64,000 bases of DNA from Dictyostelium discoideum (taxonomy: Eukaryota): NCBI GenBank assembly GCA_000004695.1, contig CM000154.2, forward strand, positions 3,904,001 through 3,968,000, read 5' to 3'. This document shows, one piece after another, positions 6,595 to 10,730 of this stretch (position 1 is the stretch's first letter; the number at the start of each line of letters is the position of its first letter). Both the position numbers and the translations under genes were made by a program. A model generated the notes under the pieces. The model was given only the letters and a program-made list of their open reading frames with translations, had not been told where the DNA came from and did not search any database.

Positions 6595-6761
6595 AAAAAA
6601 AAAACAATTTTTCAAATTCCAAAAGACATAAATCATTTTGCTAATTTTATAAAAAGTTTTTTCTTTTTTGACTTTTTTTCTGACACCAAGGATATTTGTG
6701 AAAATTTTCTATTATTTATATGTTTAAAAAAAACTTTCTCAGAATGATGGTCGTAATCTTT

Positions 6762-6800
<39 letters not shown>

Positions 6801-6925
6801 ATTTTAATGGTCATTATTTTTGCTAATTTTATGAAATTGATTTTTTTTTTTTTTTTTTTTTTTGAAAACCAAGGATATCTTCAAAAAACAAAACTTTCTC
6901 AAAATGTTTGAATCAGTTTTTAGAT
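6595..6925 (+). promoter_or_regulatory. Two tandem copies of a ~150-bp conserved upstream cassette (…aaagacataaatc-ttttgctaattttataaaa…caaggatatttgtgaaaattttct…aaactttctcagaatgat…tttagatttttt) 5' of paralog 2
   Basis: Copy at 6608-6770 and a shorter copy at 6810-6920. A third copy lies at 10585-10730, upstream of paralog 3. Only a weak remnant (2680-2720 '...ggctttcaagttttttttttagatttttt') precedes paralog 1. Each sits ~120-300 bp upstream of the MKIILTL start codon. Confidence 0.5.
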
Positions 6926-7023
6926 TTTTTTTTTTTTTTTTTTAAAAAATATAAATACTTTTTTTTTTTTTCAAAAAAATTATTATTTTCATTATTACAA
7001 TATCGTTTTTTAAAAATAAAAAA

Positions 7024-7432
7024 ATGAAAATAATTTTAACATTATCAATTTTTTTAATTTGTTTTTTACAACTTGGACAATCAGTTATTGATCCATCCCA
7101 AAAAGATGTAATGTCAGATTTATTGTTTAATATGTACGGTTATAGTCTGGGTCTAGACCCATGTCAAAATTTATTTGTTATATGTAAAAACATCAATTCA
7201 ACAAGTACCTTTCAAACTGTTACAAATTTAAATTTAGGAACTCCAACACAAGAATATGTAATCACTCAAGATTTATCTCCACTCCAAAATTTAACCGTTT
7301 TTGAATTATATAGCAGTATTTATCTAAGTTCATCTTTTTTTAATTATGTTAATAAATTTACTAAACTCAAAGAAATGTAAGTAAAAATAATAAAAAAAAT
7401 AAGAACTTTAAAATACAAAACCTATAATGACC

Positions 7433-7496
<64 letters not shown>

Positions 7497-9594
7497 AATA
7501 TAAAAACTAATAATTATTTAAAAATAATAGATATTTACAATCATTTAATGTAACAATTCCAGATGATACAATTTTCCCAGCAAGTTTAGAAAGATTTACT
7601 ATTTATAATCCTTCAGTTCCTTTAGGTAGAGCAACTTTTGAATCAAATATTAAAAATATATTTATTAATTCTCCTTTAATTGGTTTCAGTCTTCCAACTT
7701 TAATAAATGTCAATCCATATCTTGAATATCTTTCACTTCCAGTAACTTTCTATTCAGGTTTTCCTTCAAATCTATCTCAAGTATTCACAAATTTACTTAC
7801 TTTGCAAATTCGAGTATTTAATGATATGAATGAAAATAATTACAAAAACTTTTCCATTTCAAACAATGGAATTTTTAAAAATTTAAAAGATTTAGAAATT
7901 GAATTTACTGATAGTGATAATCCTCAAGAGTTTTCAATTCATTCATTCTTATCAAATGTTCCAGTAATTGATTATATATATATTTATGGTCAAGGTGTAA
8001 CTATTGACCCATCAGTTGGTATTTTAGATTTATCATACATTAAAGCTGATAATTTGTATTTGTATGCAGTAATATAATCATAAAAAAACAAAATAATTAA
8101 AATAATATTTACCTTTATTAACAACAATTTAAATTTTAAATTTTTTTTTTTTTAGTAATATTGATTCAAGTTCAATATTAAACAATTGTAAAGGCACTTG
8201 TATTAAATTCCCTAAATATTCCACTTTTGATTCATATTATTGCAAATTTTCATATGATGCTATTGATTTCTCAAATCTCCTACGTTTCTATGATAACAAT
8301 AATGATTATGAACAAAATTTACCAAATATTGATAATGCTCCATTACTCAATGAAATTTCAATATCCTCTTCTATTGTAAGTATTGAACTATAAATTTATT
8401 TCATTAAAAAAAGTAATAAATTTAACATTTTTAAATTTTTATATTTATCTTAAAAAGGTTGTCGGTGATATTCCTGAATCATATTGTAGAATAAATAACT
8501 TATTCCTACGTAATAATGAACTCAATGGAACAGTACCATCATGTATTATATGTCTTGGTGGCAACAAAGGTGGTGGTATGGTTTTACCAAATCCATTATT
8601 AAATTTCAATATAACTTCTGAACCATATTGCCCAAATTTCAAAATTGATGAAAACTATACAAATTTATTACCAACTGATGGAACTGGAAATATAATAATT
8701 ACTGGTACTAATTTAGGTTGGGCGGAAGGATATGGTTTAACACCAATTATCGCAAATTCAAAATTAGCTATTACCATTCCAAAGGGTGTTGGTACAAATA
8801 AGAACATTACTGTAACTTTCCAAAATGGTGAACAGGGAACATTTTATTATAGTTACATTCCTCCTTTCATTAAATCTTACGCAATTATAGAGCTTTTCGG
8901 TCAGAAATTTTTCACAATAAATGGTACTGGTTTCAATTATCAGAATTCTAATAACATCACTATTAATGATCAACAATTTACATTTATTAATGCATTGGGA
9001 GGAGGTGATAATGATGGTTTGACAGGATGGTATTTTTTTGATATACCAAATTTTGCTACTGAGAGTAATTTTACAGTATCTGCACTTGTAGGTGGTCAAA
9101 GTTCAAATGAAGTTACATTTTATTATTTCAACTCAATCAATATTACTGAAGAGAAATTAGTTTTAAATAATACAGGTGGTTCAGTAGATATTAATGGTTC
9201 ATTTGGTACTAATAATACATCATTAGTTTCAGTCTCAATCAATGGTACCAATTGTTTAGTTACATCATACACAAACTCAAAATTAACAATTACATATCCA
9301 TCAAATCAAGTTGGAGATAATTATGTTTTAACTTTGAATGTTGGTGGTTATGCAGTTAATCTTGTTGTTGAATACATTGAAGGCGGTGAAACTCCAACAC
9401 CATCAACAACACCATCAACAACACCATCAACAACACCATCAACAACACCATCAATAACACCATCAACAACTCCATCAACAACTCCAAGTTCAACACCAAC
9501 CCAATCACCTGGTGATGATGGATCAACATCTTCAACATTATCAATTTCATTTTATTTAATTACTTTGTTATTATTAATTCAACAATTTATTTAA
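7024..9594 (+). CDS. Surface glycoprotein paralog 2 (LRR + IPT/TIG + PT stalk + GPI signal); 4 exons, ~746 aa
   Basis: Exons 7024-7376, 7531-8061, 8156-8375, 8458-9594. Donors GTAAGT, GTATGC, GTAAGT. Frames verified against ORFs 7024.., 7802.. and 8383... Exon 4 is ~95% identical to paralog 3; exons 1-3 are more divergent. The stalk has 8-9 TPSTTPS units. Confidence 0.8.
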
Positions 9595-10339
9595 TAATTA
9601 AAAAAAATCACTCTTTTCGACAGTCAATAAGAAGTTTAAAGGGATACATTAAAACTTTGAATTCCAATTTTTTTTTTTTAATAATTAATAAAAAAAAAAA
9701 AATAATTTATATCCACCTTATATCTATTCCATATTTTTTAAAAAAAATGTATTTAAGTTTTATATAATTTAATGCCAGGATCAAATGGTGTGTCATTTGT
9801 GTTTTTTAAAAAAAAAAATAATAAAATCAAATAATCAAAAATAAATCAGTTTCTCTTGGAGGCACTTTTTCCCATATTGCGTCAAAAATAAAAAAAAAAA
9901 TTTAACTGTTTTTATTCTATTTAAATTATAAAAATGTATGTTACTTTTTTTGGTGCTTTAATAAATAAGAATTTTTTAAAAATATAAATTGAATTTGGAT
10001 GGGATTATTATTTTTTTCCTTCCAAATATTCACTATTTTTTATTTTTATTTTTAAAATTTATTAGTTTAATTTTTTTTTTTTAAAATTTGTTAAAGTATT
10101 ATTTTATTTTATTTTTTTTTATGTTTTGTTTTCTTTTTTGTGTTTGTGTTTGTGTTTGAGTTATTGTTTTTGTTATTGTTATTATTTATTTATTTGTTTT
10201 TATTTTTTTATTTTTATTTTTATTTTTTTTTTTATATTAACTTTAAAATCAGTAATGTTAAATGGATGGTCCCAAACAAAGATTACTTCATACATTTTAT
10301 TAACAAATATAAAAAATCAAATAACTTTTCAAAATAATT

Positions 10340-10390
<51 letters not shown>

Positions 10391-10584
10391 TTTATTTATT
10401 TATGCACGAATTATTTAGTTGATAAATTATCTATAAAAGATATTAATATTTTTTTTTTTTTTTTTATTTTTATTTTATTTTTATTTTTTTTTTTTTTTGT
10501 TTTTTTTAGAAAACTAAACTTTATTGCCAGTGTCAAATATTTCATGCAAAAATTAAAAAATCCTGGCTCCACAAAAAAAAAATT

Positions 10585-10730
10585 GGAAAAGACACAAATC
10601 TTTTGCGAATTTTATAAAATGTTTTTGGGGCTTTTTTTTTAAAAAAATGATCGAGGATATTTGTGAAAATTTTCTTGAAACAAAAAAAAAAACTTTCTCA
10701 GAATGATTGGGTAAGGTTTTTTAGATTTTT
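10585..10730 (+). promoter_or_regulatory. Third copy of the conserved upstream cassette, 5' of paralog 3
   Basis: 'ggaaaagacacaaatcttttgcgaattttataaaatgttttt...gatcgaggatatttgtgaaaattttcttg...aaactttctcagaatgattgggtaaggttttttagattttttt' aligns with 6608-6770. Confidence 0.5.

Follow-up and report, generated by a model that had tools for sequence, protein, structure and literature searches.

The 5′ flanks of tandem multigene families co-duplicate and are partly homogenised during the concerted evolution of gene arrays, and regulated expression of Dictyostelium genes generally depends on elements 5′ of the TATA box. The core of the Dictyostelium RNA polymerase II promoter has been described genome-wide: the sequence TATAAA(A/T)(A/T) is located about 29 bp 5′ of the start site of transcription (TSS), within a sense-strand poly-T tract whose end lies about 2 bp ahead of the TSS (Chang et al. 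2012, PMC3371697). Here an upstream block was analysed that is repeated in a 64,000-nucleotide stretch of Dictyostelium discoideum DNA (the window; assembly GCA_000004695.1, contig CM000154.2, forward-strand positions 3,904,001 to 3,968,000), where it precedes the second and third of three tandem genes (paralogs 1, 2 and 3) that look like surface glycoprotein genes. A first-pass annotation had interpreted this block as a functional promoter/enhancer module. In our analysis it is probably the ordinary co-duplicated 5′ promoter flank of one subfamily (P-type), copied with the genes of a tandem, copy-number-variable family, with upstream promoter elements likely within it. As far as the searchable literature shows, this instance has not been described before, but as a kind of feature it is not new.

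A profile hidden Markov model (HMM) of the block found exactly three copies in the window, which precede paralogs 2 and 3 on the + strand. The full P-type block of paralog 3 (10521..10734, +) was defined by nhmmer (E 1.5e-47), motif matches and reading of the sequence. Paralog 2 is preceded by a distal copy (6599..6773, +; nhmmer E 3e-25) and by a degenerate ATG-proximal copy (6813..6931, +; nhmmer E 1.9e-15 and pairwise alignments). The two blocks before paralog 2 and the one before paralog 3 are those that the first-pass annotation had described, and all four of its ordered motifs were found where it had placed them, with self-BLAST and the profile HMM in agreement. Relative to the ATG, the blocks span −425..−251 and −211..−93 in paralog 2 and −324..−111 in paralog 3. 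The proposed distance of 120–300 bp to the start is about right for motif C (293 and 133 nt in paralog 2, 155 nt in paralog 3), but the whole blocks extend from −425 to −93. Similarly, copies do occupy 6608–6770, 6810–6920 and 10585–10730, the extents first given, but the paralog-3 copy is about 65 nt longer on its 5′ side, which includes gtgtcaaatatttc.

The paralog-3 block contains, on the + strand, the motifs E gtgtcaaatatttc (10530–10543), A0 aaaagacacaaatc (10587–10600), A (10601–10619), B (10653–10675), C (10690–10707), with the C core TTCTCAGAATGATTGG at 10695–10710, and D tttttagatttttt (10718–10731). In the distal paralog-2 block, A0 (6621–6634), A (6636–6654), B (6688–6710) and C (6731–6748) are followed on the same strand by a D-like tttcagatttttt and then by T30 at 6766–6795. 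The proximal copy, also on the + strand, retains A (6818–6836), a truncated B ccaaggatatcttc (6869–6882), C (6891–6908) and D (6917–6930); it is without the A0 aaaagacacaaatc, and a stretch of 23 nt that begins in the 3′ part of B and reaches into the B–C spacer is deleted. Motif B (aaggatatttgtgaaaattttct) was matched at 6688 without mismatches and at 10653 with one mismatch, two or more matches being seen in none of 100 shuffles, and motif C (aaactttctcagaatgat) at 6731, 6891 and 10690 with 0, 2 and 0 mismatches, a count likewise reached in 0 of 100 shuffles. Motif A (ttttgctaattttataaaa) was found with at most one mismatch at 6636, 6818 and 10601, in the three blocks only; by itself, this AT-only motif was not above chance at up to three mismatches. 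In a self-BLAST of positions 1–17000, the segment 6614–6868 aligned with 10580–10834 (70.5%, E 2.6e-26) and 6882–9680 with 10681–13533 (86.8%).

An alignment of 10 block-carrying genes from −450 to +2850 showed that the order E-A0-A-B-C-D-TATAAATA-polyT-leader-ATG is retained in all of them. The aligned consensus sequences were AGTGTCAAAyATTTC for E, AAAAGACACAA for A0, TTTTTGcGAATTTTAtAAAATG for A, tCGAGGATATctGtGAAAATTTTC for B, an A-run followed by CTTTCTCAGAATGATTGGGTAcGG for C, and TTTTTAGATTT for D, after which come (A)TATAAATAc, poly-T, an A-run, the leader and the ATG.

The distribution of the block among relatives was determined in 245 kb from six genomes, comprising eight genomic loci (L001 to L008) picked from protein matches and containing 23 family start codons. 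The block profile gave 13 matches (E ≤ 2e-15), each on the gene strand and just 5′ of a family ATG, and none elsewhere in the 245 kb. The block precedes 12 of the 23 family starts, in one copy each except for the two at paralog 2 of the window. Since their flanking genes are the same as those of the window, L001, L007 and L008 represent the orthologous array in other genomes; L005, with six family genes and no flanking gene within the stretch compared, was assumed to be orthologous because of its tandem layout. L006, a dispersed single copy that also carries the block, lies beside an actin gene and a retroelement, some 130 kb away from the array of that genome. The copy number of the family varies, with three genes and a fragment in the window and five or six genes within 22 kb in other genomes. 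The single-copy flank at 14956–18595 shows only 87–97% identity to L001 18748–22472, though the L001 genome bears the label D. discoideum; by this measure, the divergence between the source of the window and the compared "strains" is unusually large.

At the D. firmibasis (L002, L003) and D. dimigraforme (L004) loci, no nhmmer match to the block with E < 0.5 was obtained. The upstream 300 nt of the D. firmibasis paralogues L002 13288 and L003 10001 have common blocks of their own (ttttgcgaaatcgaagaaaaa, tttttgggagatttgagaaaa and tacacaatttt). By these sequences the co-duplication pattern is the same in D. firmibasis, with upstream sequence that is unrelated to the D. discoideum block and has turned over completely between the species. 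A ACTTTCAGAAAA noticed by eye at about −160 in one D. firmibasis gene was too weak to count as a footprint.

The first-pass annotation had also named the case in which the cassette would turn out to be a generic repeat at many unrelated loci. Such a dispersed or mobile repeat, or a small noncoding RNA (ncRNA) gene lying near these genes by chance, would be hard to reconcile with 13 of 13 copies in the same orientation and at a fixed position with respect to a family gene, and with none elsewhere in the 245 kb. An ncRNA gene is suggested by a CCCACAA heptamer just 5′ of A0 in L001_10001 and L005_10001, where paralog 3 has CTCCACAA, which resembles the Dictyostelium upstream sequence element (DUSE) found about 60 nt 5′ of structured RNAs in ncRNA genes (PMC7919456). 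Unlike in those genes, the heptamer is followed by no Class I RNA or Rfam family and by no stable fold, and it is missing in most block copies (present in only 2–3), so that a DUSE/Class I RNA promoter was rejected. An Rfam scan of the block (E ≤ 10) returned only noise, with no match at E < 1, folding of the block against shuffles showed no excess stability (z = −0.76, +0.88 and +1.43), and the 64-kb window is without tRNA genes. Open reading frames (ORFs) of the spacers on both strands were of low complexity only, with no hidden gene that the block might serve. We consider a chance repeat or ncRNA gene hardly credible.

Mean pairwise identity among the copies is 0.61 beyond −330, 0.76 in the block, 0.80 at −99..−1, 0.85–0.92 in the gene, 0.72 at +1..+100 and 0.58 further on. 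As in other co-duplicated, partly homogenised 5′ flanks of tandem families, homology thus covers the gene and short flanks and declines outward, the block follows the gene tree at the 5′ end, and the 3′ exon shows recombination or conversion; nothing essential distinguishes this locus from them. Together with the gene, each duplication, tandem or dispersed, would have taken along some 330 bp on the 5′ side and some 90 bp on the 3′ side; the block extends from about −330 to −100 of the ATG and ends where the TATA/poly-T core begins. Conserved 3′-flank sequence directly past the stop codons of paralogs 2 and 3 (9608–9664 and 13467–13520; tcactcttttcgacagtcaataagaagtttaaaggg...) forms the 3′ boundary of the duplicated unit, and the 3′ flank of paralog 1 differs.

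The rate of change was measured as Fitch parsimony steps per usable column on the gene tree in a 10-sequence sample. The block showed 1.08 steps/site, in comparison with 1.64 at −450..−331, 0.87 at −99..−1, 0.39–0.49 in introns, 0.51 at codon position 3 and 1.03 in the 3′ flank at +1..+100; individual motif blocks showed 0.75–1.3 steps/site. In four close orthologous pairs, the block values were 0.020, 0.098, 0.047 and 0.051 and the intron values 0.013, 0.035, 0.019 and 0.094. Within the window, the proportion of aligned sites that differ between the paralog-3 block and the paralog-2 copies is 0.142 for the distal and 0.209 for the proximal one. The introns of paralogs 2 and 3 differ at 0.096 of sites, and the synonymous divergence (dS) of the two genes is 0.158 in exons 1–3 and 0.065 in exon 4. 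The block is therefore not conserved above the neutral rate, and its drift is no slower than that of introns and silent sites. With rates at or above neutral, the similarity of the copies is that expected from shared descent alone, and the complex islands are conspicuous because the intervening homopolymer runs change rapidly in length. In exons 1–3, codon position 1 is faster than position 3 (0.75–0.78 vs 0.56–0.60 steps/site) and pairwise nonsynonymous-to-synonymous ratios (dN/dS) are 0.7–0.9, which suggests that selection on the N-terminal two-thirds of this surface protein is relaxed or diversifying.

These rates bear on two alternative explanations. In the first, proposed by the first-pass annotation, the block would be a selectively maintained promoter/enhancer module whose copy number (two, one, remnant) tunes the expression of paralogs 2, 3 and 1. 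The position of the block 5′ of the TATA/poly-T core is upheld, as are the ordered motifs retained in 10 genes and the family specificity in the sequence searched. The argument from conservation is not, since there is no conservation excess over the neutral proxies: neither a rate below that of introns or synonymous sites nor a counterpart detectable by nhmmer at the D. firmibasis and D. dimigraforme genes was observed. Furthermore, the doubling occurs in 1 of 23 genes in six genomes, the promoter-proximal paralog-2 copy has lost A0 and part of B, and paralog 1 belongs to a different promoter class and does not represent a lower "dose". A maintained module of this kind is improbable, and selection on the block and tuning of expression by copy number are unsupported. 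Because the block drifts no more slowly than introns and silent sites and the flank was copied along with the genes, its repetition is no evidence for a special enhancer.

The second explanation goes in the opposite direction: the block would be an inert hitch-hiking flank without regulatory role, alignable because the duplications are young, and only the TATA/poly-T core and the leader would matter. The rate of evolution of the block, and of each motif in it, is about double that of introns and third codon positions, pairwise block divergence is at or above dS, no counterpart was detected in the D. firmibasis or D. dimigraforme loci, and conservation between the two subfamilies is best in the windows of the leader (0.85) and of TATA/poly-T (0.75) rather than in the block. 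On the other hand, homology ends fairly abruptly at about −330, even though the adjoining spacers ought to be just as old, the distance from the C core to the ATG is kept in both subfamilies, and the general dependence of Dictyostelium genes on elements 5′ of the TATA box speaks against it as well. We regard an entirely inert flank as rather unlikely, and a co-duplicated promoter flank with upstream elements in it as the better account.

The comparison of the subfamilies defined two promoter classes. In the tree of exons 1–3 plus introns, the block-carrying genes form one clade (P-type) and paralog 1 groups with block-less N-type genes. The exon-4 tree mixes P-type and N-type, which implies recombination or gene conversion in the 3′ half; together with the fall of dS between paralogs 2 and 3 from exons 1–3 to exon 4, it reads as the signature of conversion or recombination confined to that half. 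An alignment of 11 N-type upstream regions showed blocks of their own, TTTTTGAAGAATTAAGAAAAAAA and then ATCTATTCTCAGAATGGTTGGyTTTcAAG. In paralog 1 the N-type upstream blocks (2656..2712, +; N-type and N/P alignments) consist of gaagagttaagaaaaagaatct, then tggttggctttcaag, which is the C core minus its 5′ half, and then D tttttagatttttt at 2699–2712. Paralog 1 had been thought to retain only a remnant of the cassette; it does have in common with the P-type block only the 3′ end (tggttgg...tttttagatttttt, 2679–2712), but it is not a decayed copy, being a member of the separate N-type subfamily with its own blocks. At 6120–6151, in the spacer between paralogs 1 and 2, there is an orphaned relic of an N-type promoter (gaagaattaagaaaaaaaatctattctcaatg) that no gene follows; it is probably the trace of a lost paralog.

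Common to both classes are only the 16-bp C core TTCTCAGAATGRTTGG, D, TATA/poly-T and the 5′ leader. The C core gave 17 matches with up to three mismatches on both strands of the 245 kb, and for 16 of them a family ATG follows at a distance of 107–165 nt, or of 288 nt in the case of the distal paralog-2 copy; four of the 16 ATG-linked cores belong to N-type starts, namely three full genes and the truncated fragment L007_13631. A metagenome scan with a degenerate C core returned at least 120 loci in which only the ~20-nt core was matched (median GC 45%), and these were rejected as chance matches. The paralog-3 core TTCTCAGAATGATTGG contains ATTGG and TTC-TCA-GAA, and so resembles an inverted CCAAT box and a GAS-type STAT site, and the C core lies about 60–80 nt 5′ of the predicted TSS. 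NF-Y binds the inverted CCAAT box (ATTGG), for which 60–80 nt 5′ of the TSS is a typical distance; a GAS-type STAT site is TTCN3GAA, and Dictyostelium STATa is known for TTGA-type sites. ATTGG is not invariant, as NF-Y binding would demand, but occurs in about half of the P-type cores, with GTTGG in N-type genes and ATGGG, AATGG and TTTGA as other variants. TTCN3GAA, as a sequence resemblance only, is intact in 11 of 17 C cores and replaced by TTCN3AAA or CAA in the remaining 6.

The predicted core promoter of paralog 2 (6950..6979, +) consists of TATAAATA at 6950–6957 (at −74), T13 at 6959–6971 and then an A-run. That of paralog 3 (10735..10771, +) has a degenerate TATA, tatattttta, at 10735–10744 (tatatttt in place of the exact octamer), followed by T15 at 10750–10764 and an A-run; the same arrangement of degenerate TATA and T-run is seen in the relatives L001_10001 and L005_10001/13893. 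The exact TATAAATA octamer is located at −69..−82 in 9 of the 23 family genes, and sense-strand poly-T 3′ of the TATA and then an A-run are found in paralogs 2 and 3 as well as in relatives. Application of the TATA/poly-T rule (PMC3371697) to the sequence predicts the TSS of paralog 2 at about 6973–6985 and that of paralog 3 at about 10766. In agreement with that description, TATAAATA, T13 and the A-run of paralog 2 occupy about 50–75 nt before the ATG, and the block directly 5′ of the core is interspersed with long T and A runs, upstream A/T tracts being present in the promoters described (PMC3371697). The present case differs from that description in that the latter concerns the core only, the block being located upstream of the core and specific to the gene family, in that the TSS are predicted here, and in that the paralog-3 TATA is degenerate. 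Its place directly 5′ of the TATA/poly-T core therefore makes the block upstream-promoter sequence.

A more distal start would make the block transcribed, either as a 5′ leader exon or intron driven from a distal TATAAAAG/poly-T (~10432–10465) or as the carrier of a short upstream ORF. A TATA-like element with a T-run at about −410 is common to several copies, GGGTAAGG/GGGTACGG beside C is splice-donor-like, and (T/C)AG stands about 25 nt before the ATG in most relatives. The donor-like GT is, however, missing in the proximal paralog-2 copy, and a transcribed leader is disfavoured because paralogs 2 and 3 are without the acceptor-like AG and the proximal TATAAATA and poly-T are among the best-conserved upstream features across both subfamilies. 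A 19-codon ORF (MIEDICENFLETKKKTFSE) runs across motifs B to C at 10647–10706, and its frame is kept in L001_10001 and L005_10001. As an upstream ORF or leader peptide it was rejected: its start codon is confined to the clade of paralog 3, L001_10001 and L005_10001, the ATG at 10647 being matched only in L001_10001 and L005_10001/13893, and other copies having aaaatcgagg or accaagg without ATG. Transcription of the block is very unlikely by this evidence.

The doubling is restricted to paralog 2 of the window, no other gene among the 23 in six genomes having two blocks. Its two copies differ at 0.152 of aligned sites, and both carry TTTTGCTAATTTTAT, where other genes have GCG, GAG or GTT, which is consistent with a local duplication whose period, from motif A at 6636 to motif A at 6818, is about 182 nt. 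Tandem Repeats Finder misses this ~180-bp duplication because the copies are too diverged and contain indels; pairwise alignment shows it. Paralog 2 would later have undergone a local tandem duplication of about 180 bp of its flank, with the ATG-proximal copy now decaying, and the T-runs flanking the copies could have mediated the event. Selective maintenance or an expression effect of the doubling is unsupported.

On the favoured explanation, the flank would hold upstream promoter elements in the form of short G/C-containing islands in AT-rich DNA, read by sequence-specific factors, and the similarity of the copies would reflect descent, with gene conversion concentrated in the gene body. The best candidate element would be the C core, common to N-type genes and close to the predicted TSS; from position only, a regulatory role of the block is plausible, and most so for this core. 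Purifying selection on the block is not measurable in these sequences. Several observations weigh against a promoter flank with functional elements. Position is the sole argument for its promoter role, and no sub-block evolves more slowly than the introns. The C core is polymorphic between near-identical orthologues (TTCTCAAAATG vs TTCTGAAAATG), its identity between N-type and P-type (0.60) falls inside the intron range of 0.47–0.67, and paralog 1 and several other N-type genes are without most of it and have intact reading frames. A second TATAAAAG with a T-run at about −410 (10432–10465) leaves room for a more distal start. Upstream, the highest identity between the two types is in the leader and TATA/poly-T, as given above.

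The window contains about 22% G+C, long A and T runs and short AT-rich introns with GTAAGT...TAG splice sites. There are exactly three instances of the start ATGAAAATAATTTTAACATTATC, at positions 2804, 7024 and 10845 of the + strand. All three paralogs are intact four-exon genes with open frames in the spliced models: paralog 1 (N-type; 2804..5268, +; exons 2804–3156, 3243–3776, 3861–4080 and 4172–5268; 734 residues), paralog 2 (P-type; 7024..9594, +; exons 7024–7376, 7531–8061, 8156–8375 and 8458–9594; 746 residues), which has homologues in Dictyostelium genomes, and paralog 3 (P-type; 10845..13432, +; exons 10845–11203, 11337–11870, 11984–12203 and 12287–13432; 752 residues). All three proteins begin with a signal-peptide-like N-terminus, have numerous N-X-S/T sites and a TPSTTPS repeat, and end in a hydrophobic C-terminus of the kind typical for glycosylphosphatidylinositol (GPI)-anchored Dictyostelium proteins. 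The family has a weak IPT/TIG domain match (PF01833, also precomputed), and its members look like TIG-domain surface glycoproteins, GPI-anchored by appearance. Only Dictyostelium is represented among the closest protein matches (D. discoideum strains, D. cf. discoideum, D. firmibasis and D. dimigraforme), and the sole name retrieved among the homologues was "Cell surface glycoprotein" (D. firmibasis). An exact look-up of the three window proteins in a protein collection gave no match. The proteins may belong to the gp138 sexual-cell-fusion glycoprotein family.

Further remnants were found around the genes. A 3′ pseudogene fragment at 14540–15100, with 88–92% identity to the ends of paralogs 1–3, abuts unrelated sequence directly at 14540, and a second, shorter relic of the C-terminal region lies beyond it at ~15330–15400. 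A second repeated element between the glycoprotein genes (minus strand, 977–1460, 5598–5700 and 13972–14544) consists of minus-strand ORF remnants rich in GTT/AAC repeats, the longest ORF (524–1057, 177 aa) containing GNYQFKDVPPSEY; the array unit may once have included the gene of this ORF. About 750 nt 5′ of paralog 1, a 69-nt inverted repeat (1841–1909 / 2013–2081) has arms 91% complementary and 103 nt apart, with non-repetitive outer ends (agagttgtgggaaatcacc). The spacer between paralogs 1 and 2 also contains a (TTTA)n microsatellite of about 23 units at 6196–6287.

In young tandem arrays, matching complex islands in homopolymer-rich spacers are expected from descent alone, and such islands should be given a functional reading only after they have been set against a neutral yardstick, for instance introns and synonymous sites within the same genes. 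The analysis nominates one 16-bp element, TTCTCAGAATGRTTGG, for mutagenesis, with TTCTCAGAATGATTGG and CGAGGATATC as the point-mutation targets in the paralog 2/3 flank. It is conceivable, at rather long odds, that the P-type E-A0-A-B is a subfamily-specific regulatory module, the C core a family-wide activator site and the paralog-2 doubling a natural cis-regulatory copy-number variant. If this were true, the expression programme of paralogs 2 and 3 and their relatives would differ from that of the N-type genes, for example in fusion-competent cells, in bacterially grown cells or in development. The finding has little importance beyond the locus; for the family, a fast-evolving and copy-number-variable group of surface glycoproteins, it delimits the promoter region and distinguishes two promoter classes.

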